Of a DNA stretch of 64,000 bases, positions 1,767 to 61,796 are shown in pieces. The stretch lies in the NCBI GenBank assembly GCA_965248265.1, contig CBDFJF010000001.1, forward strand, positions 2,144,001-2,208,000, read 5' to 3'. Below the pieces are notes generated by a model. The model was not told where the DNA came from. It saw nothing but the letters and a program-made list of their open reading frames with translations, and searched no databases. Every line of letters begins with the position of its first letter. Within the stretch, counting starts at the first letter, position 1. The translations under genes and the position numbers were made by a program. The DNA is from Candidatus Latescibacterota bacterium. GTDB taxonomy: Bacteria > Latescibacterota > UBA2968 > UBA8231.

Positions 1767-1877
1767 TGGCTCGATTCTTTGTTTGTGTGCCTGAAGGGGG
1801 ACAACGATAACGGGAATTGAAACTATCTCGCCCTCTGTCCCCTGACAACTCTGTGGCCATGGCAATCGGGTCCAGGA

Positions 1878-1917: not shown

Positions 1918-1995
1918 GTGGGCGGATGCAGTATTGTGCCTTATTTTTCAAGGTTGCTCTGGAGATTTACCCAAGACCGGAATCGGACTCGGAAT

Positions 1996-8848: not shown

Positions 8849-8939
8849 CGATCTGATTCTCCTCTTTCATTTCATAGTTCATTGGCATTGGAGACCGGAG
8901 CAGCACTACCATCGCGATCCCGATGCCCACGCGCAAGAC

Positions 8940-32810: not shown

Positions 32811-32861
32811 GTGCACGACCTCTTGTCGGTGGAGCTCACTAAAAGGAGACGGGCGGTAGCT

Positions 32862-34835: not shown

Positions 34836-34899
34836 GACTGAACCTCCTGCTCTGAGCGCGATCAACTGCTTCAATGCAAGCTTCGTTTGCCAAGAACCT

Positions 34900-34915
34900 T
34901 GCAAGATCGGTGCCG
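34900..34915 (-). promoter_or_regulatory. Sigma-54 (-24/-12) promoter of prkA-yeaH-spoVR
   Basis: Minus strand CGGCACCGATCTTGCA, exact GG-N10-GC spacing, about 65 bp upstream of the ATG. Confidence 0.7.
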
Positions 34916-42694: not shown

Positions 42695-44593
42695 TTACCG
42701 CAACACCCTCACATCGCCGTTGCGCTGGGTGGTGCCGTCGCTGTCGAACCGATTCAGCAAAGCCAGGGCATAGCGTCGATTGCTGCCGATGAGATCACGG
42801 AAGCCGGATACGGTGATCTCGGAATGGGCCTGCAGATGTTGCCGCAGCCGTTCGCGCACGTCGTCGATCGTCGTCGTGTGAAGGACCAGGGTGCCCTCCA
42901 GGAAGGTCACCTGCCCCAATCCCTCCAGTGCTCTCAAAATGACTTCGACGCTTGTGGCATCGGCTCCGGCTTGCTGCGCCAGCTCCTTTGTATCGGGAAC
43001 CTGATCCAAGGTCGCCTTTCTCAAGGCAGTCTCTATCTGCTGCTTGAGTTGTTCTTCAGCCCCCGAGAACTGGATGCGATGATCGGCCGCGCGTACCAGG
43101 GATCCCTCGATGGCAATGCGGCCGTCCACCATCAGAGACTCCAGGACTCGTTGAAACAGGGATGGAGGCACGTAGCGACCCAGCTGACGGCGCAGATCCT
43201 CGCGGTTGAGCCCCTTGGCCAGCGGGGTCTGTTCGTGGAAGGCAGCCAGCATCTCCTCGATCCCGGTTGCGATCTCGTTCCAGCGCTGCGCGTGCACCAG
43301 ACTGTCTTCTTGATCGACGATCAGGCGCAGGGCGCGGCCGTCGCTGACCAGCTGTCCGGCCAGCTCGTGAACTTGCTCACGCGTCAGTCCCATGTCGCTG
43401 CCCAGTTTCAGCAGACTGGCAAAGCCGCTGCTGGTCCCTGCCAACTTTGCTTCCACGACCTCGGCTCCGTCCCCCGACTCGATCGCCTTGAGGCGCTCGA
43501 CGAGGCCGCGTTCCGTCCGTCGATGCTTGATCGGATGTGCTTCGAGGATCAACCCGCCGCCGATCGTCAACGGCGGGGAGTAACGCCTGATCACGAAACG
43601 GTCACCCCATGCGGCCGCGACCGGAGACTCTAATCGCAACTGTACCAATCCGTCCTCTCCAGGCTGCAGGCGATCCTGCTCCAGCAGAACCACCCGGGCC
43701 ATGACCTCACACGTGCCCAGGTGCAAACGCACTCGCGTCCGGTGCTCGAGTTCCTTGGGACAGCTGGAAACCAGGCGCAGACGCGCGTCCAGCATGGAAC
43801 TGGGGGCCAGCGATCCGGGCTCGGCCAGCACGTCTCCACGCTGAATCGGCAAACGCTCCTGTCCGACGACGTTGACGGCGGCCCGATCGCCGGCGCTGAC
43901 GGCATCCACTTCCTCTCCGTGGCGCTGCAGGCTGCGTGTGCGGACCTCCTTGCCTGCCGGCAGTACCTCCAGCTCGTTCCCCTTCGACAGGTTTCCCGAC
44001 AACACCGTGCCCGTGCACACCAGTCCGAAGCCCTTGGCAGAGAACGCGCGGTCGACGCTGAGCCTGAAAGGCCCCTCGGATCGCTTTTCCTGGGTCTGCG
44101 CGATGGTCTGCTCCAGCTGCTGCTTGAGGTCGTCCATTCCCACCATCGAGATCGCCGAAACCCGAACGATTGGAGCCTCCTCCAGAAAGGTCCCCGATAC
44201 CAGCTCGCGGATGTCTTCCTCCACCAGGTCCAACCAGTCATCATCTGCCAGGTCGACCTTGTTGAGCGCGATGACGCCGCGCTCAACACCCAAAAGCTCG
44301 AGGACATCAAGATGCTCCCGCGATTGCGGCATGACGCTGTCGTCCGCGGCGATGACGAGGAGGGCAACGTCGATCGTACTGACGCCGGCCACCATGGTCT
44401 TGACGAAGCGCTCGTGTCCGGGGACATCGATGATGGTGGCGTGTTCGCCATAAAAGGCGAAGCCCAACTCGATCGTTATTCCCCGAGCCTTCTCTTCTGG
44501 CGTTCGGTCGGTATCGGTACCGGTCAATCCCTTGACCAGCAAGGTCTTGCCGTGATCGATGTGGCCGGCCGTGCCTATGATGGTATGCGCCAT
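42695..44593 (-). CDS. selB: Selenocysteine-specific elongation factor SelB
   Basis: [40 protein letters not shown]; winged-helix end [16 protein letters not shown]. Confidence 0.95.
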
Positions 44594-44705
44594 ATGACGG
44601 AATCTAATCGGCTGCCGTCTCGGCAACAAAAGTGCTGCAGCTTTGTCGTCCCCATGGCATCCCCTATATTCGCGACCGCATTCACTGAAAAATAGAGGAC
44701 GAGTC

Positions 44706-45329
44706 TTGGCGGAAGTACTACACATCGATCCCGAGCATATCAGGGGTCGCTCGATCGCCCGTGCGGCGGAAATCCTCAGGGAGGGCCGGGTTGTCATTTA
44801 CCCGACGGACACGATCTACGGCATGGGATGTGACATCACCGTCAAAGCGGGACTCGAGCGGATCAGAAGGATGAAGGGGACGGACGCGAAGAAGCCGATG
44901 TCATTCGTGTGCAGCGACCTCAACGACATCAGCAGGTACGCCAAGGTGTCGAATTTTGCCTACCGCATCCTGAAGCGGTGTCTGCCAGGCGCCTACACTT
45001 TCGTGCTACCGGCGACGAAGGAGACCCCTCGAATGGTCCAGAGCAAGCAGAAGACGGTCGGCATTCGCATACCGGATCATCCCGTCCCGTTGGCTCTCGT
45101 GTCCGAGCTTGGCAACCCTATCGTCAGCACCAGCGCCAACCGCACAACAGAAGAGGTGATAACGGACCCCATCGACCTGGAACGCCAGTTCGGTTCACAG
45201 GTCGGAGTGATTCTCGAATGCGGCCTGCTCCCGGTGCAGCCATCAACCGTCATCTCCCTGGTCGGAGATGAGGTAACCATCCTGCGTGAAGGTCAGGGGG
45301 ATGTCGAGCTGTTTCGCGAGCCGGTGTAA
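44706..45329 (+). CDS. Sua5/YciO/YrdC threonylcarbamoyl-AMP synthase family
   Basis: YPTDTIYGMGC, LPGAYTF, VGIRIP, STSAN; TTG 44706 after GAGGA. Confidence 0.9.
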   Translation: MAEVLHIDPEHIRGRSIARAAEILREGRVVIYPTDTIYGMGCDITVKAGLERIRRMKGTDAKKPMSFVCSDLNDISRYAKVSNFAYRILKRCLPGAYTFVLPATKETPRMVQSKQKTVGIRIPDHPVPLALVSELGNPIVSTSANRTTEEVITDPIDLERQFGSQVGVILECGLLPVQPSTVISLVGDEVTILREGQGDVELFREPV

Positions 45330-49605: not shown

Positions 49606-50811
49606 TTGCGCTGGGCATCTGCCATCACGAATGACCTGGATGTGAGGTCCGCTGTGGCCGACCTCAAGGCACAGCTGTCCTCCACGCTGGAAGACGAGCC
49701 TCTGGATCTGGCGCTCGCCTTCGTGAGTCCTCACTACGGTGACAGCTTCGACCTCCTTGCCGAGTTGATCACCTCCCAGATCGGTCCCCGACATTGTATC
49801 GGCTGCACGGCGATGGGCGTCATCGGCGGCGGACGGGAGATCGAGCAACAGCCCGCTCTATCGCTTACCGTGGCCAGACTACCGGATGTGGAGATCGACA
49901 CCTTCCACCTGGAAGCCGATGCCCTCCCCGATCCTGACGTCGGACCCGAGGCCTGGATCGATACGCTCGGAGTCCCGGGCGATCCCGTGCCCCAGTTTCT
50001 TCTGCTGGCAAACCCGATGGGGACAAGCGCTTTCGATCCGAGGCCGCTGTTGATGGGATTGGACTTCGCCTACTCACGGTCGATGGTCGTCGGCGGTCTG
50101 GCCTCGGCTCTGCAGGGCAATACCCTCTTCATCGATGGCGTGGTCGTGCATTCGGGGTGTGTCGGCCTTGCCCTGCGCGGCAACATCAGCGTCGACCCGG
50201 TCGTGGCACAGGGTTGCCGAGCCGTCGGTCAGCCAATGGTGATTACCGGCTGCACCGGACACTACCTGGAGGGATTGGACGATCGCCCCTCGTTTGAGGT
50301 GCTGCTCGAGTTGTTCCAGAATCTTCCGGAGTCCGACCAGGAGTTGATGAAGTCCAACGGCCTCTTCCTCGGCATCGCCTCTACGGCGCTCAAGCAGGAG
50401 CTCAAGCACGGTGACTTTCTGATCCGCAATGTCATCCGGCTGGATTCGTCCAGCGGCATAATCGGGGTCGGCGACATGCTGCGCCCGGGCCAGACGGTCC
50501 AGTTTCACCTGCGTGATGCAGACACGGCCACGGAAGATCTCGAACTCATGCTGCGACAGTACTCTGAGGCCGCCTCGACCCGGGACACGATTGGCGGATC
50601 GCCTGCCGGCGCATTGCTGTTCACCTGCACCGGGCGCGGCGAGCACCTGTTCGAGCGGCCGAACCACGACTCTGACAAGTTCACCGCGGCCATGGGTGAC
50701 ATACCGCTGGGTGGATTCTTCTGTGGAGGTGAGATCGGACCTGTGGGTGGCGCCACCCACCTGCACGGCTACACCTGCTCGTTCGCCATCTTCAGACCCG
50801 CCCACGGTTGA
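49606..50811 (+). CDS. FIST N/C domain signal-sensing protein
   Basis: IGCTAMGVIG..EIE, VVGGLAS, VAQGCR, GDFLIRNV, LFTCTGRG, GFFCGGEIGP. Start uncertain (TTG 49597 or 49606). Confidence 0.9.
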   Translation: MRWASAITNDLDVRSAVADLKAQLSSTLEDEPLDLALAFVSPHYGDSFDLLAELITSQIGPRHCIGCTAMGVIGGGREIEQQPALSLTVARLPDVEIDTFHLEADALPDPDVGPEAWIDTLGVPGDPVPQFLLLANPMGTSAFDPRPLLMGLDFAYSRSMVVGGLASALQGNTLFIDGVVVHSGCVGLALRGNISVDPVVAQGCRAVGQPMVITGCTGHYLEGLDDRPSFEVLLELFQNLPESDQELMKSNGLFLGIASTALKQELKHGDFLIRNVIRLDSSSGIIGVGDMLRPGQTVQFHLRDADTATEDLELMLRQYSEAASTRDTIGGSPAGALLFTCTGRGEHLFERPNHDSDKFTAAMGDIPLGGFFCGGEIGPVGGATHLHGYTCSFAIFRPAHG

Positions 50812-50828
50812 GTCCGCAGGGGCGAACC

Positions 50829-52022
50829 CTACCCACGGGTACTGGCGATGGCCCATCGTCCCAGGGCCGGCAAGCGACCGAGCGCCGTCAGCCCAAGGGT
50901 TCCGGCTATGTCGCTCAGCAGTAGAGCCTGTAGCTGATTCCCAAGTCGTATACGCAGACCGAATTCACGCCGCCATTGCCGTCTGTAGGAGTCCAGCATC
51001 CGGGCGCCAGAGATAGCCCCGTCCAGGTAGCGGTCGGCGAGTGGCGCCGCCAGTTGTGCGGCGCGCAACGCCATCGAAATCCCGTCCCCGCACAGGGGTG
51101 CTATGGCGCCGGCGCTGTCACCGACGCACAATCGCCCGGTGTGCGGTGCAGGGCCGAATTGCAGGTTGGCCACGGCCAGGGCCTGCGACCAATCAGGCTG
51201 CAGCTGCTCCAGCCTGGAGGCGAGACTTGCATTGGCCGCCATCACCTGGTCGGCTAGCCGTTGCGGATCCTTGCCAACCCGGCGCAAGGCTGAGGATTTC
51301 ACCATGGCGCACACGTTCACTCGCTCACCTTCCACGGCAGCCAGGCCGAGATAACCGCCGTCGAAACCGTGTAACTCGACGGTGCTGCCCAGCTGTTCCG
51401 CGCCTTGAGTATGCAGTTTCAACCCCAGCATGCCATCGTCAGTCCCCGTCCCCCGGGACCACCACCTGGAGGCCTTCTCTCGCACGTGTTCACCCTCAGG
51501 AGGATGGCGCAGCAGAGCGCTCTGGCGGCCGCAGGCGTATATGACCAGGCGACATGCCAGCCGTTCACCCGACGCAAGATGGACAGCAGTAGATGCGGGT
51601 ACCGAATCGGTAGAGACTCTCTGGTGCAGGCCGTCGTCGTCGACCCCGGCGACACGGACCCCCTCGCGTACATCGACACCCGCACTCACGCACTGCTTCA
51701 GCAGCTGATAGTCCAACGCCGCCCGAGTGCACCCCACGGCATTCTGCGGCAGGCGCTCCTGCCACACCGCACCGCGTCGGCTGGAGACCAGAACCTGGTC
51801 GATATCGGGGCTGGTTGTCGCCAACCATTCACCCAGACCGAGATCCGCCAGGGCTGCGACGCCCTCGGAGGAAATGAATTCGCCGCAAAGTTTGTCGCGG
51901 GGAAACCTGGCCCGCTCCAGCAGTGTTACCCGCCTGCCTGCCCGCATCAGTTGGATTGCCATCGCAGAGCCAGCCGGACCGGCACCGATGACGACGACAT
52001 CAATGCGTTCGATCCCTTCCAC
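50829..52022 (-). CDS. FAD/NAD(P)-dependent oxidoreductase (geranylgeranyl reductase/FixC-like)
   Basis: DVVVIGAGPAG, FPRDKLCGEFIS, VGDSAGAIAPLCGDGISMAL. Confidence 0.9.
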   Translation of the reverse strand: MEGIERIDVVVIGAGPAGSAMAIQLMRAGRRVTLLERARFPRDKLCGEFISSEGVAALADLGLGEWLATTSPDIDQVLVSSRRGAVWQERLPQNAVGCTRAALDYQLLKQCVSAGVDVREGVRVAGVDDDGLHQRVSTDSVPASTAVHLASGERLACRLVIYACGRQSALLRHPPEGEHVREKASRWWSRGTGTDDGMLGLKLHTQGAEQLGSTVELHGFDGGYLGLAAVEGERVNVCAMVKSSALRRVGKDPQRLADQVMAANASLASRLEQLQPDWSQALAVANLQFGPAPHTGRLCVGDSAGAIAPLCGDGISMALRAAQLAAPLADRYLDGAISGARMLDSYRRQWRREFGLRIRLGNQLQALLLSDIAGTLGLTALGRLPALGRWAIASTRG

Positions 52023-52028
52023 CTTCGT

Positions 52029-52781
52029 TTACGCAGTCTCCGGTGGCAGGCACAGAGCCCAACGAAACCCCCAGCGCCAGCTCAACGACGATGGGCTGGC
52101 GCCTGCGGCACGCGAGAGTTCCTCAAGTTCGTGGCGGCGAAACCCGCGCAGAACGCTCAGCGGCCCGTCATGGCGGACAAACTTGCTGGCCGAGAACAGA
52201 GCCGATCCCAGACGGACGGACCAGTAAGCCAGCGGATGACGATGCAGGTCGTTGACGATTACGCCTACTCTGGCCAGCCCACGGAAGGTTCGCAGAATCA
52301 TGGCCGCTTCTTGGTCATCAAAGTGATGCAGAAACAGAGAGCTGTGAACGATGTCGAAGCTGGCCGGCCGAAACGGCACTCGGAAGACATCTCCGGCCAC
52401 GACGGCCGCTGCGACAACGGCCGGCGTTCCGGGGGGCAAATCCGTGTCGGCGACTCGCCTCAACAGGACCCGAGCACGGGCACAGGTGAAGGTGTTGATG
52501 TCCATGGATACTACCTGAAGAGACCGACCTGCCCGTCTCGACCAACGCTCCATCTCGACAGCGGTATCGGCTCCCCCGGCTCCGACATCCAGCACCGTCA
52601 ACTCCCGGCTCTTTGGTTCCGCGCGCAGCAGCTGCTCGATGCTGAGAATGCTGGCCCTGTGCCCCCCGAGGTGGCGGTTGATGATCTCGAGCTCTCGCAG
52701 AGCGTCATGGAGGACATCCCCGGCGATGTCCGGCTCATCCATGTACTCATGCCCGCGAGCGCGGGCGCCATAGCGGCTCAT
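52029..52781 (-). CDS. Class I SAM-dependent methyltransferase
   Basis: EYMD, INRHLGG, VLDVGAGGAD, SSLFLHHF, NDLHRH, DGPLSVLRGF. Confidence 0.9.
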   Translation of the reverse strand: MSRYGARARGHEYMDEPDIAGDVLHDALRELEIINRHLGGHRASILSIEQLLRAEPKSRELTVLDVGAGGADTAVEMERWSRRAGRSLQVVSMDINTFTCARARVLLRRVADTDLPPGTPAVVAAAVVAGDVFRVPFRPASFDIVHSSLFLHHFDDQEAAMILRTFRGLARVGVIVNDLHRHPLAYWSVRLGSALFSASKFVRHDGPLSVLRGFRRHELEELSRAAGASPSSLSWRWGFRWALCLPPETA

Positions 52782-52782
52782 G

Positions 52783-53880
52783 TCAGCGCGTGAAGCGCAT
52801 GCCCTCGATGCTGAGTCCCGGTCCGAAGCTCAGCGCCGCGCCAGTGCCGCCCTGCTCCATAGCACGCAGCGTACGCTCCAGCACGAACAGAACCGTCGGC
52901 GACGACATGTTCCCGAAGTCACGCAGTACACTTCTTGAACCATCTACCATTGCTGCCGGCAATCGCAGCGCTTCCTGAGCCGCATCCAGAATCGCCGGCC
53001 CACCCGGGTGGATGGCCCAGTGGGGATTCTCCTCCCGCTCTGGCGCCAATAGCTGCTGGGCGAAAGCGGGCAAACTCTTGGCCAGCACCCTCGGCGTGCC
53101 AGAGTCCAGTCCCATGCTGAAGGCGGCGTTGTCGATGCGCCAGGTGAGAAAGTCAGCGCTGTCTTCGAGCACACACGATTCGAAGCCTCGAATGCGTGCA
53201 TGACTCCCGTCGATACAATCCGGATTGGAGCTCAGGATCGCGGCCGCGGCACCATCCGCGAACAGGCAGTTGGCCACCAGATCCTCATCCATGTCCGAGT
53301 TGCGAAAATGCAGGGAACACAACTCAGCACATACCAGCAGTACTCTTGCGGCCGGCTCGCTGCGGCAGAAGGCGTCGGCGACCTGCAGGCCGTGCAGTGC
53401 CGCCTGGCATCCCATGAAGCCGATTTGCAGTCGTCGCAGATCGGTGCGCAAACCGAGCGCCCGTGCCACCTGCTGATCCGGTCCCGGGGCAACAAAACCG
53501 GTACAGGTGGCGAAGACCAGGTGCGTGATCTGTGCGGCGGCCGTTGCCGTTCGCTCCAACGCGGACTCGCAAGCCCGCACGGCCAGCGGTACCACTTCAC
53601 GCTCGTAGCGCTGCATGCGTTCGGCCAGAGTCATGTGTGCCGCCGTTATAGCCGATCCGTCCGCGAACTCTGAACAACAACTGTAGCGGGATTCGATTCC
53701 CGAGCGTCTGTAGAGGTAGTCGATGCGGCGTTCGAGCAGGCGCTTTTGCTGTGGCGATCGCCGTTCGTCACCAGCACCTTCAAGATGAACTCGCTTCATG
53801 AAACGGGCGGCCTCGTCCTGAGCTATGCGGTATCGCGGCACTGCAGTTGCGATTCCCAGCAACAGGGTCTCCGGCTTCAC
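52783..53880 (-). CDS. Type III polyketide synthase (chalcone synthase-like)
   Basis: Cys-His-Asn triad: GFMGC, AIHPGG, FGNMSS; also ELCSLH, LFADGAAA, FGPGL. Confidence 0.95.
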   Translation of the reverse strand: MKPETLLLGIATAVPRYRIAQDEAARFMKRVHLEGAGDERRSPQQKRLLERRIDYLYRRSGIESRYSCCSEFADGSAITAAHMTLAERMQRYEREVVPLAVRACESALERTATAAAQITHLVFATCTGFVAPGPDQQVARALGLRTDLRRLQIGFMGCQAALHGLQVADAFCRSEPAARVLLVCAELCSLHFRNSDMDEDLVANCLFADGAAAAILSSNPDCIDGSHARIRGFESCVLEDSADFLTWRIDNAAFSMGLDSGTPRVLAKSLPAFAQQLLAPEREENPHWAIHPGGPAILDAAQEALRLPAAMVDGSRSVLRDFGNMSSPTVLFVLERTLRAMEQGGTGAALSFGPGLSIEGMRFTR

Positions 53881-55265
53881 TGCTCGACCCCGATCCTTGT
53901 CTGTTTGCGTCGATCGAGCTCGGCTCCAATAGCAGGCAACATCCGGCGCAACTGACGTCGCACCACCACGGCTGCGATGAAAGACGGAACGAAAGCAGGT
54001 GGTTCGATGGCGGCGGCGTAGTCAACACGGGTCCCGCCGCGATCTGAGCTGAAATCCCAGGTACCGGAGAATCGGTCCACCGCCCCCTCGACCATGTGGA
54101 AGTGCAGTCGTTGCGGCAGCTGCTCCAGGAACTCCAGGGTCACGGCGAAACGAATCGGCACGACGAAGCGGCTGTTTACGCCTTGGCGCACCCTCGCAAC
54201 GCTGTCGCTGCGCGCCAGCACCACACTGCTCTCCACATTGGGCATGAAAGCGCTCAGACTTTCGTAGTCCGTCATCAACGCCCAGACCTCTCCGGGCGAG
54301 CAATCAAGCCACAGCGACGCCTGCACCGACACCACTCCGTCCTCCTGCGTCACCTTGAGCTCCGGTTCGGTGTGGGGTTGGTCCTGACTCGCCCCGGCGT
54401 ACTGGGCCAGGATAAGCAGCCAGAACACGGCGGCCATCAACGCACTCAGGCGAAACGACCAGTTGCCGTTTTCGTACACAGTGCGCTTGCCGAACCCGCG
54501 CTGCCATGATCTGAGGAGAACCAGGAAAGCGACCAGGAAAGCTGCCATGCCCGTTCCCCAGACCACTTCCACCCGTCCCGTCGCAATCGACAGCGCCAGA
54601 GCGAGGAGGCCGCAGGCAGTGAAGATGAAAGCGAGGCGGAAAACCGTGGCCGTGCCGAAACGCACCGCGAAGGTGATGTCGCCGCGCGCTCGATCCTCGT
54701 CTTGCTGGTACACCTGGGTCAGCGGATAAAGCGCCGTGATCACGGAGACACTGATCAGCCCCAGGGCAACCCGCTCCACCGAATTTAAATCGGGGCGCCA
54801 CCCCCCTCCTGCCATAACCCCCATGAAGAACGGCAGCAGCCCCTGCCCACAGGCCACGAGGACGAGCCCGAAAAGGGCGCGCGCCTTCCACCGCCAACGC
54901 GGGTGCGAGTACCCGACTCCCATCAGCAACATCACGAAGCCGAGCAGTCCCAGCTTCAGGTCCACGAAAAAACCCATGACCAGAACGGCAGCGCACTGCA
55001 AGCCGAGACCACCCCACAATTCCATTTGGCTTACCGCCGGCGGGTGTAGCAGGCCTCCCACCGGGCCCTCGTCGCGATCGTAGTAGCTGTTGTAGGCGGT
55101 AGCGCCGCCGTACAGCCCCACGTGCAACAGCAGGAATACCAGCACGAAGTGGCCATCCGGCTGTGCACCGGATGCCCAGTACCCGAGCAGGAAGACCGGG
55201 GCGAGCACCAACTGAAAGTGCAATCGCAGATGTTTGAGGAAGTCGAGCACGGAGCCGCGTCGCAA
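53877..55265 (-). CDS. UbiA-family prenyltransferase fused to a C-terminal SRPBCC/START (polyketide cyclase/Coq10-like) domain
   Basis: About 9 TM helices with YNSYYDRDEG, YSHP and TQVYQQDEDRARGD, then without a stop PGEVWALMTDYESLSAFMPNV..EGAVDRFSGTW..TRVDY. Confidence 0.88.
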   Translation of the reverse strand: MRRGSVLDFLKHLRLHFQLVLAPVFLLGYWASGAQPDGHFVLVFLLLHVGLYGGATAYNSYYDRDEGPVGGLLHPPAVSQMELWGGLGLQCAAVLVMGFFVDLKLGLLGFVMLLMGVGYSHPRWRWKARALFGLVLVACGQGLLPFFMGVMAGGGWRPDLNSVERVALGLISVSVITALYPLTQVYQQDEDRARGDITFAVRFGTATVFRLAFIFTACGLLALALSIATGRVEVVWGTGMAAFLVAFLVLLRSWQRGFGKRTVYENGNWSFRLSALMAAVFWLLILAQYAGASQDQPHTEPELKVTQEDGVVSVQASLWLDCSPGEVWALMTDYESLSAFMPNVESSVVLARSDSVARVRQGVNSRFVVPIRFAVTLEFLEQLPQRLHFHMVEGAVDRFSGTWDFSSDRGGTRVDYAAAIEPPAFVPSFIAAVVVRRQLRRMLPAIGAELDRRKQTRIGVEQ

Positions 55266-55267
55266 GG

Positions 55268-55870
55268 CTACGGGGTGTTGTATGCCGCGCCGAATTCGGC
55301 ACGGTGCAGGACATGGTACTCCGCGCCCGCCGGCGTCAGGTCGCTGTGCAACAGCGTCATTCCCGTTATTTGAAAGCGTTGCTCGGGTACCCTGGGTGGG
55401 CCGTTTTCGCCGAAACGGCCGCGTTGTCCACGACCGCGGACTCGCGCCAGCGTGATATGCGGCTTGAACACTTGCCGCTGGCGTTGCCAGCCCAACCGCC
55501 GGGCCAAACGCTCCACCTGTTTTTGCAGCGGCAGCAGCACCTGATCGTCTCCCTCTTCGCCCACACTGACCCAGATGGCCTGACCCCTGCGCAGTGTCGG
55601 AAATCCTCCGAGCTCTCCGGGGACCGCATCGAATGAAGCCTGCTGTTGGGCGATTCCGTCCATTCCGGAGATCAGCTCGGTCACGTTTCCCTGTTGGGTG
55701 TCACCCAGAAAACGCAGGGTCAAATGGAGGTTGTCTGCCTTCACCCATCGTAGAGCTCCTTCCGGCCAGAACGGCTGCAACTGTCTAGCCCAGTCCGACA
55801 GCTGCACTCGAACCGTTGTCGGCAGCTCGAGAGCGATGAATGTGCGGATCGTTTCCGGATCCTTATCGAT
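55268..55870 (-). CDS. thpR: RNA 2',3'-cyclic phosphodiesterase (2H family); start codon non-canonical or uncertain
   Basis: RTFIALEL, LHLTLRFLG, FKPHITLAR, SDLTPAGAEY. The frame is open to about 55900 but has no ATG/GTG/TTG before RTFIAL. Confidence 0.85.
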   Translation of the reverse strand: MDKDPETIRTFIALELPTTVRVQLSDWARQLQPFWPEGALRWVKADNLHLTLRFLGDTQQGNVTELISGMDGIAQQQASFDAVPGELGGFPTLRRGQAIWVSVGEEGDDQVLLPLQKQVERLARRLGWQRQRQVFKPHITLARVRGRGQRGRFGENGPPRVPEQRFQITGMTLLHSDLTPAGAEYHVLHRAEFGAAYNTP

Positions 55871-56054
55871 AATAGTACCTCGTGCAACGATATTCTTGCG
55901 TCAGCCTATATCATTGTGGACGCGTTGGTTCAATAAGTAGGACGGACTCAGGATTAGGGTCAATCGCGTTAGCTCCATTCTGCTTGCTCCGGTCACACCC
56001 CCCAACTACATTGAAAGATTCTCCCAGCCGTTAATCCCGAATAGATACCTATCT

Positions 56055-59000
56055 ATGGACCCAGGCCACATCTGCGTCAGAGGCGCCCGAGTTCATAACC
56101 TCAAGGACGTCAGTCTCGAACTACCCAAGAACCAGCTGATCTGCTTCACCGGCGTCAGCGGGTCGGGCAAGTCTTCGATGGCGTTTGACACCCTCTATGC
56201 GGAGGGGCAGCGCCGGTACGTGGCGTCGCTGTCAGCCTACGCCCGTCAGTTCCTCGGCCAGATGGAAAAGCCGGATGTCGACCAGATCGAGGGCCTGGCA
56301 CCGACCATCTCCATCTCCCAGAAATCGGGTGGCCACAACCCGCGCTCCACCGTCGGCACGATCACGGAGGTCTACGACTATCTGCGGGTGTTGTTTGCCC
56401 GCTGCGGTACCCCTCACTGCGTGGAGTGTGACAGTGAGATTGGTGCCCAGACCAGGGACCAGATCGTCAGCCGCATCGCCGCCTTGCCGGCCAAGAGTCG
56501 CATCCACGTGATGGCCCCGGTCGTCCAGGAACGCAAGGGCGAATATCATGAACTCTTCGATGACCTGCTCAAGGACGGCTACCTGCGCGTGCGCGTCGAC
56601 GGACAGCAATTCAGTCTGGAGCAACCTCCCGACCTCGACCGCTACAGCCGTCATACGATAGAAGTCGTCATCGACCGCTTGGTCATCAAGCCATCCATCG
56701 GTCCCCGCCTTGAGGAGGCCGTCGATGGAGCCCTGCGCATGGGCGACGGTTCACTGATCGTCCAGGTGGATGAGTCGGCGCAAGACTGGCTGCTAAGCGC
56801 CAACTTCGATTGTCCCTCCTGCGGTATTTCCTACCAGGAACCGACACCGCAGATGTTCTCGTTCAACAATCCGCAGGGAATGTGTCCGGATTGCGGTGGC
56901 CTCGGCAGCAAGGTGGTGATGAGTGAACGCTTGATCGTTCCGGATGAAAGCAAATCCATCATGGCCGGCGCCGTGGAGCCCCTCGGTAACGTCACCAGCA
57001 ATCGGTGGCGTCTCCATCTCTACGAAGGCATTGCCGAGCACCTTGGATTCTCCCTCGACACCCCGTGGAAGAAGCTGTCCCGCGAGCACCGAGACCGTTT
57101 TCTGCATGGAATGGGCGCCGAGAAGATCGAGTTCACCTACACCAACCAGAACGGCTATTCCTGGAGTCACAACGACCGCTACGACGGGGCGTTGCAGTAC
57201 CTGGAGGAGCGTTTTCACTCCTCCAACGCGAGGGCGCGTCGCGAGCTTGCCGGCTACGCGCGTTCCGAAATTTGTCCCACCTGCACTGGCGGACGACTGA
57301 AGAAGCAGGCTCTGGCTGTCACCATCGATGGAGAGCCACTGCCACGGTTGACGGGACTGTCGATCGAGCGCTGCCGGCACTTTTTCGACCAGCTGGAGCT
57401 TGATGGCAACAAGGCCCTGATCGCCGAGGACGCCCTCAAGGAGATCCGCGGACGCCTTGCGCTGCTCGTCGACATCGGCCTCAGTTACCTGACCCTGGAC
57501 CGGGGCGCCCACACCCTCTCGGGTGGCGAGTCGCAACGGATCCGCCTGGCCAGCCAGATCGGCTCGGGTCTGGTCGGCGTGCTCTACGTACTGGACGAGC
57601 CTTCTATCGGATTACACAATCGAGATAATCAGAAGCTGCTCGGCACCTTGCGGCGGCTGCGCGACGTCGGCAACACCGTCGTCGTCGTCGAGCACGATGA
57701 AGACACCATGCGCCAGGCCGATCTCCTCGTCGATTTCGGGCCAGGGGCCGGGGATCGCGGCGGCCATCTGGTCACCAGCGGGACTCCGGAGGAGGTCACC
57801 CAATGCCGCGAGTCGCAAACCGCCAGCTACCTGACGGGCGAGTCGCGCATCGAGATCCCAAGCCAGCGCCGCACCCTGCAACCCGATCGCTTCCTCACCG
57901 TGGTCGGGGCTCGGCACAATAACCTCAAGGACCTCACCGTACGCCTGCCCCTGTCCGTTTTCACCTGTGTGACCGGAGTGTCTGGATCGGGAAAGAGTTC
58001 ACTCGTCAACGACATCCTCTTCAAAGCCCTCGATCGCGATCTCCACAACGCCTTGACCGAACCGGGCGACCACGACGATATCCAGAACGTGGAGCACCTC
58101 GACAAGGTAATCCGCATCGACCAGAAGCCGATCGGGCGCACACCCCGTTCCAACCCGGCGACCTACACCGATGCCCTGACACCGATTCGGCAGTTGTTCG
58201 CGCAGCTGCCCGATGCTCGCCTCCGGGGATACAAGCAAGGTCGCTTCAGCTTCAATGTCGCCGGGGGACGCTGCGAAGCCTGCGACGGCAATGGTGCCAA
58301 TCTGGTGCAAATGGAGTTCCTCGCGGATGTCTGGGTTACCTGCGAAATCTGTGAAGGCCGGCGCTTCAACCGCGAGACCCTGACCATCAAGTTCAGGGAT
58401 CACTCGATCGCCGACATCCTCAATCTTGAGGTCGAAGAGGCTACGACACTGTTCGAGAATGTCCCCCACGTGAAGCGCGTGCTGCAGACTCTGTGCGACG
58501 TCGGACTCGGCTACATCAAGCTCGGACAACCAGCCCCCACCCTCTCCGGAGGCGAAGCGCAACGAGTGAAGCTGGCCAAGGAGCTATGCCGTGCCAGCAC
58601 CGGCCGCACCCTCTACCTGCTGGACGAACCGACAACTGGTCTACACTTCTCCGACATCGAGAAACTGCTACGCATCTTGCACACCTTCGTCGACCAGGGG
58701 AATACCGTCGTCGTTATCGAGCATAACATGGAGGTGATCAAGACCGCCGATCACCTCATCGATATGGGACCCGAAGGAGGCGAGGAGGGAGGCCTGGTGC
58801 TGGCCTCGGGCACACCCGAAGAGATCGCCGCCGTCCCCGGGTCGCACACCGGCCAGGCTCTGGTCTCAGCACTCGCCCCCGCGACATCCCGCAAGGCCGC
58901 CGCCAGGAAAAAACGCACCGGGCACACCAACGAGAAACCAAAAGCAGGTGGCAACGGATCCAATGGGAGCAATGGCTGGATCCGTGAAATCGAGGTCGTG

Positions 59001-61796
59001 GGAGCTCGCATGCACAACCTGCGTGACGTCGACGTCCGCATTCCACGGGACCAGATGACGGTCGTTTCCGGGGTCAGCGGCTCGGGCAAATCATCCCTCG
59101 CTTTTGATACGATTTATGCCGAGGGCCAGCGGCGTTATGTCGAATCCCTGTCGGCCTATGCGCGTCAGTTCCTGGCCCAGATGCAGAAACCGAAGGTCGA
59201 ACGCATCACCGGTCTATCGCCGGCCGTGGCCATCGAGCAGAAGAGCCCCAGTAAGAATCCGCGATCCACTGTCGGTACCATCACCGAGGTCAGCGATTAC
59301 ATCCGCGCCCTGTACGCGACCATCGGCGTCCAGCATTGTCCTCGCTGCGCCGTGCCGGTGGGAGCCCAGACGGTCCAGCACATGGTGGATCGTATTCTGC
59401 ACGAACCGGAGCGCCGCGTCATGGTGCTGGCCCCACTGGAACCGGTGCGCAACGAGGGCTACGAGGCCCTGTTGGCGCGTGCGCGCCGCGACGGCTTCGG
59501 CCGCGTCCGCATCGACGGCGAACTGCACGAGTTGAGCGAAGAGGACGTACAACTGGAGCGCCGGCATCGCCATCGGGTCGAAGTCGTCGTCGACCGCATC
59601 ATCGTCCGCCGGCGCGAACGGGCTCGTATTGCCGAGGCCGTGGAGCGTGCCCTGGAGCTGTCTGGTGGCGAGATAGTCATTGCCTCGATGGATGATGATT
59701 CGCAAACCTCACGCGAGGCTTCACAAGTGGAACGCTTCAGCCGGCGCTTTTCCTGTCCTTCTTGCGGTACCGGATTCGATGCCCTGGTCCCCCAGAGTTT
59801 CTCCTTCAATCACCGCGAGGGGATGTGTGAGATCTGCGAGGGACTCGGAGTCGGCGAAGGGGTGGACCGCGAGCTGTTGCTGCCCAACCGCCGCGTCTCC
59901 GTCCGTGACGGCGCGATTTCGGTTTGGGGTCCGATCGAGTCCGGTCGTTTCGGCGACTACCTGGAGGCCTGCGGCAGCGCCTTGGGATTCGATCTGGATA
60001 CCCCCATTGCCGAGCTGTCCACCGAAGGACAGCAGGCACTCCTCTACGGGGCTCCGGATCACTCCATCGAGATCGGCGGCGGCCTGCACCTGCGCTTCGC
60101 CGGGGTTTTTCCGACCGTTGACGAGTGCGCCCGTCACCACGTGAACCTCAAGAGTATGATGCAGGATGTGGCGTGCTCGGCGTGCCAGGGCAGTCGCCTG
60201 AAACCGGAGAGCCGCGCCGTCCACCTGCGCGAGCACACGATCGTCCAGTTGTTGTCGCAGCCGATCAGCGAGTGCCAGGCGTTTTTCGACCGCCTCGAGC
60301 TCGACGCCAAGGAGCAGGAAACCTCAGGCGAATTGCTCGGTGAGATCCGCAGCCGCCTGCATTTCCTCAACCGCGTTGGCCTCGGTTACATCTCACTGGA
60401 TCGACGCGCCGCCACACTTTCAGGTGGAGAGGCCCAACGCATCCGCCTCGCTGGCCAAATCGGCTCGGGGCTTACCGGCGTCCTTTACCTGTTGGATGAG
60501 CCCACCATCGGGCTTCATCCGCGGGACAACCGGCGACTCCTCGACGCGCTCGAGGAGCTCAAACAGCTCGGTAACACCGTGGTCATGGTGGAACACGACA
60601 GGGAAACGCTGGAAGCTGCCGACCATCTCATAGACCTGGGCCCCGGCGCAGGCACGGAGGGCGGGCACGTCGTCGCCAGCGGTCCGCCCGCCAAGGTGGC
60701 GAAGGCTCGCACGCGCACGGGGCAGTCGCTTACCGTCGACTACCTGCGGGGCAAGCTGAGCATTCCTTTGCCCAAGTCGCGCCGGCGACTGACCCGCGAC
60801 CATGAGATCCGCGTCATCGGCGCACGCCAGAACAACCTCAAGAATATCGATGTCGCTTTCCCTCTCGGGTTGATGATATGCGTCACCGGCGTCTCGGGGT
60901 CGGGCAAGAGCTCTCTGGTCGAGGAGGTTCTTCACAAGGGGCTGGCGTCAGCGTTGCAGCGCTCAAAGGGAGGCACCGGCGGGGGCGAGTATGATGAGAT
61001 CCGGGGTTTGGACCTGGTCGACAAAGTCATAAACATCGATCAAGCTCCGATCGGTCACTCGCCGCGCAGCACCCCGGCCACCGTCATGGGTGTCTTCGAT
61101 CAGGTCCGACAGCTCTTCGCCCGTCTGCCGGAAGCGTTGGTGCGTGGTTTCAAACCGGGTCGCTTCAGCTTCAATCGGGCTGGCGGACGTTGTGAGTCGT
61201 GTGAAGGTCTGGGATCGCGATGCATCGAGATGCACTTTCTGCCGGATGTCTGGGTGCGATGCGAAGCCTGCATGGGCCAGCGTTACGCCAACGAAATTCT
61301 CCAGGTCCGCTTCAAAGGCCACTCCATTGCCGCCGTCCTGGAGATGACGGTGAGCTCAAACCTGAAACTGTTCGCCAACGTCAACGGCGTTCGTGAACGC
61401 CTGCAGGTGATGGAGGATGTCGGTCTCGGCTACATGTCACTGGGTCAGTCTTCGACCACGCTCTCGGGGGGTGAAGCGCAACGACTGAAGCTGGCGGCGG
61501 AGCTGGCGCGGCCGGACACCGGCAACACCTTCTACATCATGGACGAGCCTACGACGGGGTTGCATTTCGCCGACATCCAGAAACTATTGCTCGTCGTCGA
61601 GCGTCTCGTCCAGGGTGGCAACACCGTCGTCATCGTCGAGCACAACATCGATGTCATCAAAACAGCCGACCATGTCATCGACATGGGTCCCGAAGGCGGC
61701 GATGCCGGCGGCCGCATCGTCACCAGCGGCACGCCGGAAAAGGTCGCGCGCAGCAAGCGCTCGCACACCGGTAAGATCCTGAGTGAAATCCTGTGA
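56055..61796 (+). CDS. uvrA: Excinuclease ABC subunit A, double-length tandem form
   Basis: Four Walker A motifs (GVSGSGKSS), four LSGGE and DEP motifs, UvrA zinc fingers twice, joined by a linker at about 58860-58980. Confidence 0.95.
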   Translation: MDPGHICVRGARVHNLKDVSLELPKNQLICFTGVSGSGKSSMAFDTLYAEGQRRYVASLSAYARQFLGQMEKPDVDQIEGLAPTISISQKSGGHNPRSTVGTITEVYDYLRVLFARCGTPHCVECDSEIGAQTRDQIVSRIAALPAKSRIHVMAPVVQERKGEYHELFDDLLKDGYLRVRVDGQQFSLEQPPDLDRYSRHTIEVVIDRLVIKPSIGPRLEEAVDGALRMGDGSLIVQVDESAQDWLLSANFDCPSCGISYQEPTPQMFSFNNPQGMCPDCGGLGSKVVMSERLIVPDESKSIMAGAVEPLGNVTSNRWRLHLYEGIAEHLGFSLDTPWKKLSREHRDRFLHGMGAEKIEFTYTNQNGYSWSHNDRYDGALQYLEERFHSSNARARRELAGYARSEICPTCTGGRLKKQALAVTIDGEPLPRLTGLSIERCRHFFDQLELDGNKALIAEDALKEIRGRLALLVDIGLSYLTLDRGAHTLSGGESQRIRLASQIGSGLVGVLYVLDEPSIGLHNRDNQKLLGTLRRLRDVGNTVVVVEHDEDTMRQADLLVDFGPGAGDRGGHLVTSGTPEEVTQCRESQTASYLTGESRIEIPSQRRTLQPDRFLTVVGARHNNLKDLTVRLPLSVFTCVTGVSGSGKSSLVNDILFKALDRDLHNALTEPGDHDDIQNVEHLDKVIRIDQKPIGRTPRSNPATYTDALTPIRQLFAQLPDARLRGYKQGRFSFNVAGGRCEACDGNGANLVQMEFLADVWVTCEICEGRRFNRETLTIKFRDHSIADILNLEVEEATTLFENVPHVKRVLQTLCDVGLGYIKLGQPAPTLSGGEAQRVKLAKELCRASTGRTLYLLDEPTTGLHFSDIEKLLRILHTFVDQGNTVVVIEHNMEVIKTADHLIDMGPEGGEEGGLVLASGTPEEIAAVPGSHTGQALVSALAPATSRKAAARKKRTGHTNEKPKAGGNGSNGSNGWIREIEVVGARMHNLRDVDVRIPRDQMTVVSGVSGSGKSSLAFDTIYAEGQRRYVESLSAYARQFLAQMQKPKVERITGLSPAVAIEQKSPSKNPRSTVGTITEVSDYIRALYATIGVQHCPRCAVPVGAQTVQHMVDRILHEPERRVMVLAPLEPVRNEGYEALLARARRDGFGRVRIDGELHELSEEDVQLERRHRHRVEVVVDRIIVRRRERARIAEAVERALELSGGEIVIASMDDDSQTSREASQVERFSRRFSCPSCGTGFDALVPQSFSFNHREGMCEICEGLGVGEGVDRELLLPNRRVSVRDGAISVWGPIESGRFGDYLEACGSALGFDLDTPIAELSTEGQQALLYGAPDHSIEIGGGLHLRFAGVFPTVDECARHHVNLKSMMQDVACSACQGSRLKPESRAVHLREHTIVQLLSQPISECQAFFDRLELDAKEQETSGELLGEIRSRLHFLNRVGLGYISLDRRAATLSGGEAQRIRLAGQIGSGLTGVLYLLDEPTIGLHPRDNRRLLDALEELKQLGNTVVMVEHDRETLEAADHLIDLGPGAGTEGGHVVASGPPAKVAKARTRTGQSLTVDYLRGKLSIPLPKSRRRLTRDHEIRVIGARQNNLKNIDVAFPLGLMICVTGVSGSGKSSLVEEVLHKGLASALQRSKGGTGGGEYDEIRGLDLVDKVINIDQAPIGHSPRSTPATVMGVFDQVRQLFARLPEALVRGFKPGRFSFNRAGGRCESCEGLGSRCIEMHFLPDVWVRCEACMGQRYANEILQVRFKGHSIAAVLEMTVSSNLKLFANVNGVRERLQVMEDVGLGYMSLGQSSTTLSGGEAQRLKLAAELARPDTGNTFYIMDEPTTGLHFADIQKLLLVVERLVQGGNTVVIVEHNIDVIKTADHVIDMGPEGGDAGGRIVTSGTPEKVARSKRSHTGKILSEIL

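Follow-up and report, generated by a model that had tools for sequence, protein, structure and literature searches.

Identity and Integrity of the Fused Gene

The locus described here raises the question of whether a prenyltransferase in the membrane can carry a lipid-binding domain of its own, and what such a domain would do. A single open reading frame in the window (the whole stretch of 64,000 nucleotides of Candidatus Latescibacterota DNA that was analyzed) encodes a UbiA-type prenyltransferase domain followed in frame by a SRPBCC/START domain (Table 1). The first-pass annotation had given the coordinates of this 462-aa frame correctly but omitted that it lies on the minus strand; the plus-strand frame over the same positions is interrupted by stops. 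The fusion itself was borne out by translation, Pfam, AlphaFold2, and other assemblies, and the linker and the motif QVYQQDED (residues 184–191) were both found in the translation as quoted. An alternative GTG start at position 55250, five codons into the frame, would yield a protein of 457 aa, and a database copy with 100% identity (P0002; 457 aa) begins at this GTG.

Table 1. Features of the fused gene and its neighbors in the window.
Feature	Position	Strand	Basis and remarks
FAD-dependent oxidoreductase/monooxygenase	50829..52022	minus	FAD_binding_3; GG-reductase and UbiH-type models matched below cut-off
SAM-dependent methyltransferase	52029..52781	minus	Pfam, NCBIfam
Type III PKS	52783..53880	minus	Begins with a GTG that overlaps the fusion's stop codon (GTGA)
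Whole fusion ORF	53877..55265	minus	462 aa from TTG, stop codon counted
SRPBCC/START helix-grip domain	53880..54359	minus	Residues 303–462; Pfam PF03364, AlphaFold2, Foldseek, profile search
Polar linker SQDQPHTEPE	54360..54389	minus	Residues 293–302; varies among close relatives; pLDDT down to 69 (block 291–300)
UbiA-type prenyltransferase domain, nine TM helices	54387..55265	minus	Residues 1–293; Pfam PF01040, AlphaFold2, Foldseek
TM9	54390..54461	minus	Residues 269–292; ends A-G-A before the linker; cytoplasmic to periplasmic side
Variant motif II, Q184-V-Y-Q187-Q-D-E-D191 ... G195-D196	54678..54716	minus	Alignment, profile alignment to 6m31 and 4od4
Asp-rich motif I, N59-S-Y-Y-D63-R-D65	55071..55091	minus	N59, D63, and D65 at least 90% conserved
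LigT-type 2',3'-cyclic phosphodiesterase	55268..55807	minus	Upstream, co-directional; Pfam and NCBIfam

Neither the translation nor the database copy has a stop or a frame change at the junction of the two domains, whose composition is alike (GC/GC3 of 0.632/0.79 vs. 0.623/0.744). The AlphaFold2 model, calculated from a 95-row alignment, has a mean pLDDT of 94.3 and a pTM of 0.78 and consists of nine long helices that reach to residue 293, followed by two strands, two helices, six strands, and a long helix. The same fused frame recurs in other assemblies at 77–88% identity and in four further 50%-identity clusters; full-length copies of 457 aa lie on several contigs from differing sources. Identity to the relatives P0003 and P0004 is 91% and 81% in the SRPBCC part and 88% and 76% over the whole protein, respectively. 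Fused relatives thus exist, and the two domains are not always encoded by unlinked genes: full-length two-domain proteins make up six of the best 150 representatives at 50% identity and seven of the best 120 clusters at 90% identity (one of them a fragment), the other 113 being UbiA only.

It is extremely improbable that the fusion is an artefact of assembly or annotation, or a decaying read-through of two genes. One assembly of the P0004 cluster does contain pieces of 348 and 108 aa on a single contig, but this break falls within the SRPBCC domain and not at the junction. Moreover, three of the 90%-identity clusters, drawn from several sources, contain full-length copies of 457 aa; conservation extends over the two halves, their composition is uniform, and the model is confident along the whole length. 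The UbiA–SRPBCC fusion is a real gene and goes beyond chance. Sequence comparison further indicates that it is under selection, and that the link between the two domains is functional and not accidental.

The UbiA Domain and Its Asp-Rich Motifs

The N-terminal part of the protein matches the Pfam UbiA family over residues 21–255 (E = 1.1e-18; 67.9 bits against a curated cut-off of 34.2). AlphaFold2 placed helices at residues 15–31, 38–63, 80–101, 103–120, 130–152, 162–179, 199–228, 234–260, and 263–293, and the UbiA fold is described as having eight or nine TM helices (PMC4106721). Foldseek matched the domain to AfUbiA (4tq4_D; E = 7.9e-7; TM-score on target 0.72) and 7bpu_A (0.65). The nine-TM fold, motif I in part, and a Y-S pair after TM4 are shared with AfUbiA, ApUbiA, DGGGP synthase, and chlorophyll synthase, although sequence similarity to solved enzymes of the superfamily is low (profile E-values of 6e-8 to 2e-5); these enzymes differ from the fusion in having Asp where its motif II has two Gln, and in lacking a C-terminal soluble domain.

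Motif I aligns with the N..D.D of ApUbiA (4od4). Compared with the pattern NDxxDxxxD, N59, D63, and D65 are kept and E66 is present, and G67 occupies the position of the last canonical Asp. The canonical second motif DxxxD is absent and Q187-x-x-x-D191 is found instead; in the profile alignment, the positions of Q184 and Q187 are occupied by Asp in DGGGP synthase and ApUbiA. The variant QVYQQDED reported in the first-pass annotation is present but not peculiar to the fusion protein, as QxxQxxxD is invariant in the 14-row alignment (Q184, Q187, D191, and also D196). The alignment marks this motif as a hallmark of the whole UbiA family studied here, and the peptide YP[LI]TQVYQ matched 596 genome stretches. 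The case draws attention to a large UbiA family whose second metal motif is Gln-substituted. Since motif II lacks the two canonical Asp residues, prenyl transfer by the UbiA domain is assumed.

The C-Terminal START Domain

The C-terminal part matches Polyketide_cyc (PF03364) over residues 323–443 (E = 2e-17; 64.1 bits against a curated cut-off of 23.4) and Polyketide_cyc2 over residues 313–442 (E = 1.7e-10). That it adopts a helix-grip fold was confirmed by the secondary structure of the AlphaFold2 model, with pLDDT mostly above 90, and by Foldseek (TM-scores on target of 0.86 for 2d4r, 0.87 for 3tvq, and 0.83 for 5z8o). A protein search with residues 296–462 retrieved six proteins, all of them close fragments, and a search for sequence neighbors of a stand-alone SRPBCC protein (that of locus L001) retrieved seven; neighbors in the Atlas were only clusters with generic SRPBCC or COQ10 START names. 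None of the NCBIfam RatA/Coq10 models matched the fusion.

The closest solved relative is TTHA0849 of Thermus thermophilus (2d4r; E = 2.7e-7 in phmmer, 2.3e-15 with the family profile), which superimposes on the fused domain in Foldseek with an rmsd of 1.8 over 143 columns at 23% identity. It differs in being a free cytosolic protein, and its cavity is reportedly very small, the pocket being given as only about 18 cubic angstroms (PMC13525633), so that a roomy lipid pocket cannot be presumed for the fused domain. The family profile next found a START lipid-transfer protein of Xanthomonas (E = 4e-9) and ABA receptors (about 1e-5), followed at the weak end by CC1736 (1t17; 0.0072) and the type II cyclase ZhuI (0.43). 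Because the profile favors TTHA0849, the lipid-transfer protein, and the ABA receptors over ZhuI, the domain is most likely a ligand binder rather than an enzyme. Coq10, PasT (RatA), CC1736, and CoxG resemble it in Pfam family, helix-grip fold, and their described association with prenylated or alkylated quinone-like lipids, but these proteins are either soluble or anchored on their own, work on the cytoplasmic or matrix side, are not fused to a prenyltransferase, and are only weakly related in sequence.

Membrane Topology

The first-pass annotation had argued that an odd number of TM helices would turn the domain outward, and this agrees with the nine TM helices of the AlphaFold2 model and with the distribution of Lys and Arg, of which 14 lie on the N-terminus and the odd (inside) loops and two on the even (outside) loops. 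AfUbiA likewise is described with nine TM helices, the N-terminus inside, the C-terminus outside, and both Asp motifs cytoplasmic (PMC4106721). An N-terminal hydrophobic, signal-like stretch precedes the domain in seven of the 11 stand-alone SRPBCC relatives examined, and the remaining four, as annotated, begin at the domain without a signal peptide. Based on the number of helices, the charge distribution, the precedent of AfUbiA, and the signal-like stretches, the fused SRPBCC domain most likely lies at the inner membrane on its periplasmic side. The window also encodes two TonB-dependent receptors, from which it follows that the source organism has an outer membrane. Among the relatives, the SRPBCC gene in locus L001 has as its database start an ATG with GAGGAG before it, from which a cytoplasmic protein of 154 aa would result, and in fusions of the P0123/L006 type a second hydrophobic stretch after TM9 makes the topology ambiguous.

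Operon Context and Proposed Pathway

The fusion opens the conserved part of a tightly packed operon and is followed by genes for a type III PKS, whose closest solved structures are 7cb3 and PKS18 of M. tuberculosis (1ted), a SAM methyltransferase, and a FAD oxidoreductase. Among 80 related loci, the PKS was found in 51, the methyltransferase in 49, the oxidoreductase in 46, and all three in 40. The LigT homolog was found in none of the 80 and thus lies outside the conserved cassette. None of the ORFs scanned in the window matched a type II PKS gene, no respiratory genes adjoin the operon, and a Pfam scan of 60 neighboring ORFs and of longer relatives detected no further known lipid-binding family beside UbiA relatives. 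A scan of positions 50300–56200 predicted no promoters and four terminators, with 3.9 expected from shuffled sequences.

As judged from the annotated functions, the gene content of the operon is that of the Agq, Srs, and Hid pathways leading from alkylresorcinols to alkyl(hydro)quinones; such operons are very widespread. The Agq cluster of Actinoplanes missouriensis is described as combining a type III PKS, a monooxygenase, a methyltransferase, and a UbiA-like O-prenyltransferase and as forming 6-alkyl-4-O-dihydrogeranyl-2-methoxyhydroquinones (PMC10896814, PMC4044012, PMC3569393); according to these accounts, the alkylresorcinols made by AgqA become prenylated and hydroxylated, a membrane-bound UbiA-like enzyme O-prenylating the small polyketide (PMC10896814, PMC4044012). 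The likeness to Agq rests on gene content and was drawn by description, and the operon in the window adds a predicted periplasmic START domain. To our knowledge, the Agq prenyltransferase has no such domain, and its host is a monoderm actinomycete and hence lacks a periplasm. The Srs operon of Streptomyces griseus, the Hid operon of Cyanobium, and planctomycetal operons share the trio of type III PKS, methyltransferase, and FAD oxidoreductase, for which methylated and hydroxylated or oxidized alkylresorcinols are given as products (PMC10896814), but they contain neither a UbiA gene nor a START domain. An operon of the three-gene type in “S. ferox” is described as also holding a lipoprotein and a lipid/isoprenoid-binding protein (PMC10896814).

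By analogy to these systems, we infer the chemistry of the operon product: the type III PKS would produce a long-chain alkylresorcinol or alkylpyrone, which the methyltransferase and the flavoprotein would convert to a methoxy-(hydro)quinone, and the UbiA domain, with its active site on the cytoplasmic face, would add the prenyl chain.

Possible Roles of the Fused Domain

With chances slightly better than even, the UbiA domain is the membrane prenyltransferase of a phenolic-lipid pathway of the Agq/Srs/Hid kind, and the periplasmic SRPBCC domain is a non-catalytic pocket that receives the finished lipid. Both the binding of the operon product by this domain and the onward destination of the product are what we infer: the pocket would pick up the completed amphiphilic lipid at the outer leaflet and then retain it, present it, or relay it in the direction of the envelope. 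A domain on a tether of 10 residues cannot itself span the periplasm. The predicted periplasmic location argues for a product-receiving or carrier role and against a cyclase, and the preference for a carrier expressed in the first-pass annotation was upheld in this sense. The aromatase considered there as an alternative, i.e., a cyclase of the TcmN, WhiE-ORFVI, or ZhuI type acting before prenylation, is highly improbable. Its attraction lies in the name of the Pfam family and in the shared fold (TM-scores on target of 0.74–0.87 to TcmN, WhiE, and ZhuI entries); however, such cyclases are described in a review as serving type II PKS with ACP-bound poly-beta-ketone intermediates, the partner here is a type III PKS from which the domain is predicted to be separated by the membrane, and the profile barely recognized ZhuI.

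Alternatively, the domain could be a quinone chaperone for electron transfer in the manner of Coq10, PasT, or CoxG, handing a polyketide quinone to periplasm-facing redox enzymes instead of exporting it. This is unlikely, although PF03364 is the Coq10/RatA family, the Atlas neighbors include COQ10 START clusters, PasT, CC1736, and CoxG are presented as quinone couriers in a review, alkylquinones reportedly serve mycobacteria as alternate electron carriers (PMC10896814), and one UbiA relative (locus L013) lies among genes for cytochrome c, cyt-b5/DUF2231, COX2, and a FAD monooxygenase. Against it stand the cytoplasmic or matrix location of known Coq10-type proteins, the missing matches to NCBIfam RatA/Coq10 models, the weak profile hit to CC1736, and the lack of respiratory genes adjacent to the operon in the window. 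A slightly less probable role is that of a cap docked on UbiA from the periplasmic side, structural or regulatory in nature, which would tune stability, oligomerization, or product release and carry nothing; the short tether, the two-domain pTM, which suggests a defined mutual arrangement, and the tiny pocket reported for TTHA0849 would fit such a cap, but most relatives (113 of the best 120 clusters at 90% identity) do without the domain, and its relatives also occur as free proteins with signal peptides.

The preferred reading, a pocket receiving the lipid, has a working analogy in STARD3/MLN64, where, according to a review, a polytopic membrane domain holds the START domain and concentrates its lipid at the donor membrane; this protein differs in being eukaryotic, and its four-helix MENTAL membrane part is unrelated and not an enzyme. 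A bolder proposal, which we consider doubtful, is a device for synthesis plus export, in which TM9 would act as an internal signal sequence cut after A-G-A, or lipid-modified at the V-A-G-C that fusions from Eisenbacteria have in its place, and the released or anchored START carrier would bring the phenolic lipid, once prenylated, across from the inner membrane to the outer. If this were true, one START carrier would be delivered co-translationally to the periplasm per synthase made, a START-based route of periplasmic lipid trafficking that has no published precedent in bacteria.

As presumed in the first-pass annotation, a literature search on UbiA and SRPBCC found no description of such a fusion. 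A review from 2026 on the START proteins of bacteria, which treats them as mostly cytosolic, contains no occurrence of “prenyltransferase,” “signal peptide,” or “periplasm”; an exported domain would extend these proteins by an exported subfamily. The fusion suggests a built-in receiver for the lipid made by its own enzyme, and a prenyltransferase with its own outward-facing START domain would offer a testable handle on the destination and transport of these lipids in diderms, a case that is strengthened by the relatives that have the domain as a secreted protein.

Evolution and Split Forms

A recent origin of the fusion, suggested in the first-pass annotation, was not borne out as a one-time event, given its presence within its own clade at 76–88% identity and in at least three separate places of a tree of 63 UbiA domains. 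This tree requires at least five state changes, and a single clade of the fused forms was rejected by the AU test (p = 6e-8). Nor is the last TM helix a relic signal peptide, as it aligns with TM9 of unfused UbiA relatives.

The neighborhood survey, which leaves out the metagenomic fusions P0003, P0004, P0006–P0008, and P0123–P0125, found a SRPBCC domain in just three of the 80 related loci. Two loci (L001 and L002) encode it apart from UbiA, as an ORF in a different frame that is flanked by the UbiA and type III PKS genes; L004, which is close to L001, has no SRPBCC gene, and the PKS directly follows UbiA. Judging by this low number of loci and the arrangement in L004, the pathway can do without the domain. 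Contigs of equal size were also considered as a sign that stand-alone SRPBCC genes lie beside UbiA, for P0194/P0014 (12465) and P0247/P0032 (25470), but were discarded as evidence; P0285 equals L014 in size (5987) yet is not located on it.

Other candidates for an outward-facing partner occur in the wider UbiA family: a further C-terminal domain of 200–260 aa, and a lipoprotein in Hymenobacteraceae, whose model (pLDDT 76) found no match in the PDB at E ≤ 0.001. Under the proposal of a device for synthesis plus export, the wider family seems to have paired repeatedly with differing outward-facing partners, including a START domain.

Fused reading frame and predicted structure

The gene encoding the UbiA prenyltransferase and SRPBCC domains lies on the minus strand, and the plus strand of the same interval is interrupted by stops. 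The first-pass annotation had described this ORF and its coordinates correctly, omitting the strand; the linker (residues 293–302) and the motif QVYQQDED (residues 184–191) that it quoted are present in the translation. The publicly deposited copy, P0002, has 457 amino acids at 100% identity, its GTG start lying five codons downstream of the TTG. GC and GC3 are alike across both halves of the gene and the neighbouring genes.

Table. Features of the window (residues of the fusion protein are counted from the TTG start)
Feature	Position	Strand	Remarks
TonB-dependent receptor	1–1865		
Ankyrin-repeat protein	1918–3744	+	608 aa
TonB-dependent receptor	25882–28230		
PrkA kinase and SpoVR-like protein; farther, SelB	29954–34904 and 42695–44797	−	
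FAD oxidoreductase	50829–52022	−	third gene 3′ of fusion
Antisense ORF	51405–52793	+	462 aa
SAM methyltransferase	52029–52781	−	second gene 3′ of fusion
Type III PKS	52783–53880	−	first gene 3′ of fusion; GTG start overlaps fusion stop
Fusion ORF	53877–55265	−	462 codons, uninterrupted, TTG start
UbiA (Pfam)	residues 21–255	−	E = 1.1e-18; 67.9 bits (cut-off 34.2)
Polyketide_cyc2 (Pfam)	residues 313–442	−	
Polyketide_cyc (Pfam)	residues 323–443	−	E = 2e-17; 64.1 bits (cut-off 23.4)
LigT-type phosphodiesterase	55268–55807		upstream of fusion
Double-UvrA protein	56055–61796	+	1913 aa

The AlphaFold2 model (95-row alignment; mean pLDDT 94.3, pTM 0.78) has nine long helices in its N-terminal half, the last ending at residue 293, followed by the linker, where pLDDT falls to 69, and a C-terminal half that begins with two strands and two short helices, continues with six strands and closes with a long helix. 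According to this model the SRPBCC domain is a helix-grip fold, as the first-pass annotation had expected. Foldseek matched the two halves separately to structures in the PDB: the N-terminal half to AfUbiA (4tq4_D; E = 7.9e-7, TM-score on target 0.72, 306 columns) and DGGGP synthase (7bpu), and the C-terminal half to TTHA0849 (2d4r_C; TM-score on target 0.86, rmsd 1.8, 23% identity), the Xanthomonas START lipid-transfer protein 3qsz, the type II cyclases WhiE-ORFVI, TcmN and ZhuI, and ABA receptors. A single-sequence search of solved structures with the SRPBCC domain retrieved only 2d4r (2.7e-7) and 3qsz (0.029), and the family profile ranked 2d4r (2.3e-15) ahead of 3qsz (4e-9) and PYL2 ABA receptors (~1e-5), with weaker matches to the Caulobacter Coq10 homologue 1t17 (0.0072) and ZhuI (0.43). 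The pocket of TTHA0849, the closest solved relative, reportedly measures only ~18 cubic angstroms (PMC13525633).

In the UbiA half, the first Asp-rich motif is largely retained (N59, D63, D65), and the second reads Q184-x-x-Q187-x-x-x-D191, both glutamines aligning with Asp of DGGGP synthase and ApUbiA. Q184 and Q187 are invariant in a 14-row family alignment, and judged from such comparisons the Gln-substituted motif is a trait of a large UbiA family and not peculiar to the window gene.

A four-gene cassette and recurrent gene fusion

Scanning one genome per species for the family peptide YP[LI]TQVYQ matched at least 596 stretches; 588 passed confirmation, and the 80 best were retained; the window's own genome is absent from these, and the best locus is 49% identical. 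Among these 80 loci the UbiA gene is accompanied by a type III PKS in 51, a methyltransferase in 49 and an FAD enzyme in 46, with all three partners in 40 and none in 24. The gene order of the window, where only a few bases separate the operon genes, recurs in Latescibacterota and Gemmatimonadota MAGs and is divergent in Cytophagales. Since partners and gene order recur in related loci, the UbiA gene is regarded as part of a widespread four-gene cassette. The nearest solved relatives of the window PKS are 7cb3 and the long-chain PKS18 of M. tuberculosis. The Agq cluster of Actinoplanes has the same gene content: its type III PKS forms alkylresorcinols that are prenylated and hydroxylated, and a membrane-bound UbiA-like enzyme O-prenylates a small polyketide; the window cassette also extends the Srs, Hid and planctomycetal operons, which have three genes (PMC10896814, PMC4044012, PMC3569393).

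The SRPBCC domain is an accessory to this pathway. Both Pfam domains occur in seven of the best 120 clusters at 90% identity (one a 299-aa fragment), and the other 113 have UbiA only; the best 150 representatives at 50% identity include six full-length fusions, two junction-spanning fragments and eight free SRPBCC proteins, the others matching the UbiA part. An SRPBCC HMM found the domain in three of the best 80 loci: L006 carries a fusion broken off at the contig end, and L001 and L002, which are near-identical, encode the domain separately, by an ORF in a different frame that overlaps the UbiA 3′ end and precedes the PKS. In L004 (8843–8854) a UbiA gene very close to that of L001 is followed directly by the PKS, whereas L001 (8746–9396) has the SRPBCC gene between them, a difference that, on gene order, indicates recent gain or loss of the SRPBCC gene.

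In a tree of 63 UbiA domains (9 fused, 33 hand-picked unfused database proteins and 21 of the 80 loci), fused forms occupy at least three separate clades and require at least five changes of state; a single fused clade was rejected by the AU test (p = 6e-8). Identity to P0003 and P0004, relatives from the window protein's own clade, is 91% and 81% in the SRPBCC part and 88% and 76% over the whole protein. Because fused forms lie in separate clades and the SRPBCC domain is conserved within the window clade, the link is considered recurrent and selected. In one assembly of the P0004 cluster the protein is split on a single contig into pieces of 348 and 108 aa; because the split falls within the SRPBCC domain, it is ascribed to a frameshift or sequencing error.

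Membrane topology

Hydropathy and the AlphaFold2 model both give nine TM helices, in agreement with the first-pass argument that an odd number would turn the domain towards the periplasm. Lys and Arg are concentrated on the N-terminus and loops 2–3, 4–5, 6–7 and 8–9 (14 residues, against 2 on the remaining loops). The structure paper on AfUbiA describes nine helices, an inward N-terminus, an outward C-terminus and both Asp motifs on the cytoplasmic side, matching the orientation measured for E. coli UbiA (PMC4106721). TM9 aligns with the final helix of unfused relatives, which end directly after it. Taken together, these four lines of evidence predict that the SRPBCC domain should be periplasmic, and, as the two TonB-dependent receptors in the window show, the organism has an outer membrane and a periplasm.

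Independent support comes from free SRPBCC relatives, as 7 of 11 stand-alone clusters examined (P0194, P0197, P0203, P0224, P0247, P0253 and P0299) carry a hydrophobic N-terminal stretch of signal-peptide type (best 11-residue hydropathy window 1.9–3.5); in the other four (P0250, P0263/P0286, P0293 and P0297) the annotated start is at the domain itself. For the L001 protein, a GTG or TTG start farther upstream in the same frame would add a textbook signal peptide, but the annotated ATG, which follows a GAGGAG, is also the start used in five database clusters, so that the location of the protein is ambiguous from sequence. The P0123/L006-type fusion has a second hydrophobic stretch 3′ of TM9, as expected from read-through of an L001-like gene pair, and its topology likewise appears ambiguous.

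Ten of the 80 loci, from Rufibacter and Hymenobacter (L030, L031, L033, L039, L052, L057, L065, L068, L071 and L076; ~8913–9569 each), lack the PKS partner and have a same-strand conserved lipoprotein of ~200 aa directly downstream of the UbiA relative. It has a lipobox and no Pfam match, and its AF2 model (pLDDT 76) gave no match to PDB folds at E <= 0.001; it may be another outward-facing partner of the family. Three further UbiA relatives (P0186, P0212 and P0238; 491–561 aa) end in a domain of another kind, 200–260 aa long; these domains are 22–28% identical to one another and have no Pfam match.

Possible roles of the SRPBCC domain

Given the modelled fold and predicted location, the SRPBCC domain is most likely a non-catalytic lipid pocket at the periplasmic surface of the inner membrane, a reading tempered by the very small pocket reported for TTHA0849. 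Once the finished amphiphilic lipid had reached the outer leaflet, the domain would take it up and retain it, present it or hand it on. A close rival is a quinone courier of the Coq10/PasT/CoxG kind. This would suit the L013 locus of an Anaerolineales genome (6013–11093), where the UbiA relative lies between genes for cytochrome c, a cyt-b5/DUF2231 protein, COX2 and an FAD monooxygenase, which by gene content places one branch of the family in a respiratory setting. On its 10-residue tether, the fused form could not shuttle unless cut. Such a cut might be provided by TM9 if it worked as an internal signal sequence, either freeing the domain or leaving it lipid-anchored, because in all nine fusions a small-x-small motif closes the final hydrophobic stretch (A-G-A in the window clade; A-S-A, A-R-A or A-E-A in others), two Eisenbacteria fusions ending in the lipobox-like V-A-G-C. 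However, GC-rich genomes often encode Ala-rich tails.

The first-pass annotation had also considered that the domain aromatises the PKS product, an idea to which the Foldseek matches to type II cyclases are relevant. Type III PKSs carry out the cyclisation of their products themselves, and the domain is predicted to lie across the membrane, out of reach of the CoA-bound intermediate, which makes an aromatase or cyclase very unlikely. A 2026 review of bacterial START proteins assigns cyclases of the START type to type II systems.

The first-pass annotation did not recognise the architecture as described, and our literature search on UbiA with SRPBCC likewise returned no account of such a fused protein; a search combining type III PKS with either UbiA or prenyltransferase returned cluster tables only. 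The 2026 review describes bacterial START proteins as mostly cytosolic unless fused to TM helices, and the terms "prenyltransferase," "signal peptide," and "periplasm" occur nowhere in it. Judged from this literature, each part of the fusion is known, and the combination and predicted outward location appear to be new.

Neighbouring genes

The LigT-type phosphodiesterase gene and a FIST gene past the operon were excluded from the system since homologues of both are found in none of the 80 best related loci. The ORF antisense to the methyltransferase and FAD genes, coincidentally of the same length as the fusion, is considered a shadow ORF of a GC-rich region, the Pfam matches there being on the minus strand. 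Divergent from the operon, a single protein consists of two complete UvrA units (NF001503 matched twice; four ABC ATPase stretches). Elsewhere in the window, PrkA kinase and SpoVR-like genes surround an unmatched 319-aa ORF, with the selenocysteine elongation factor SelB farther away, and another protein consists almost entirely of ankyrin repeats.
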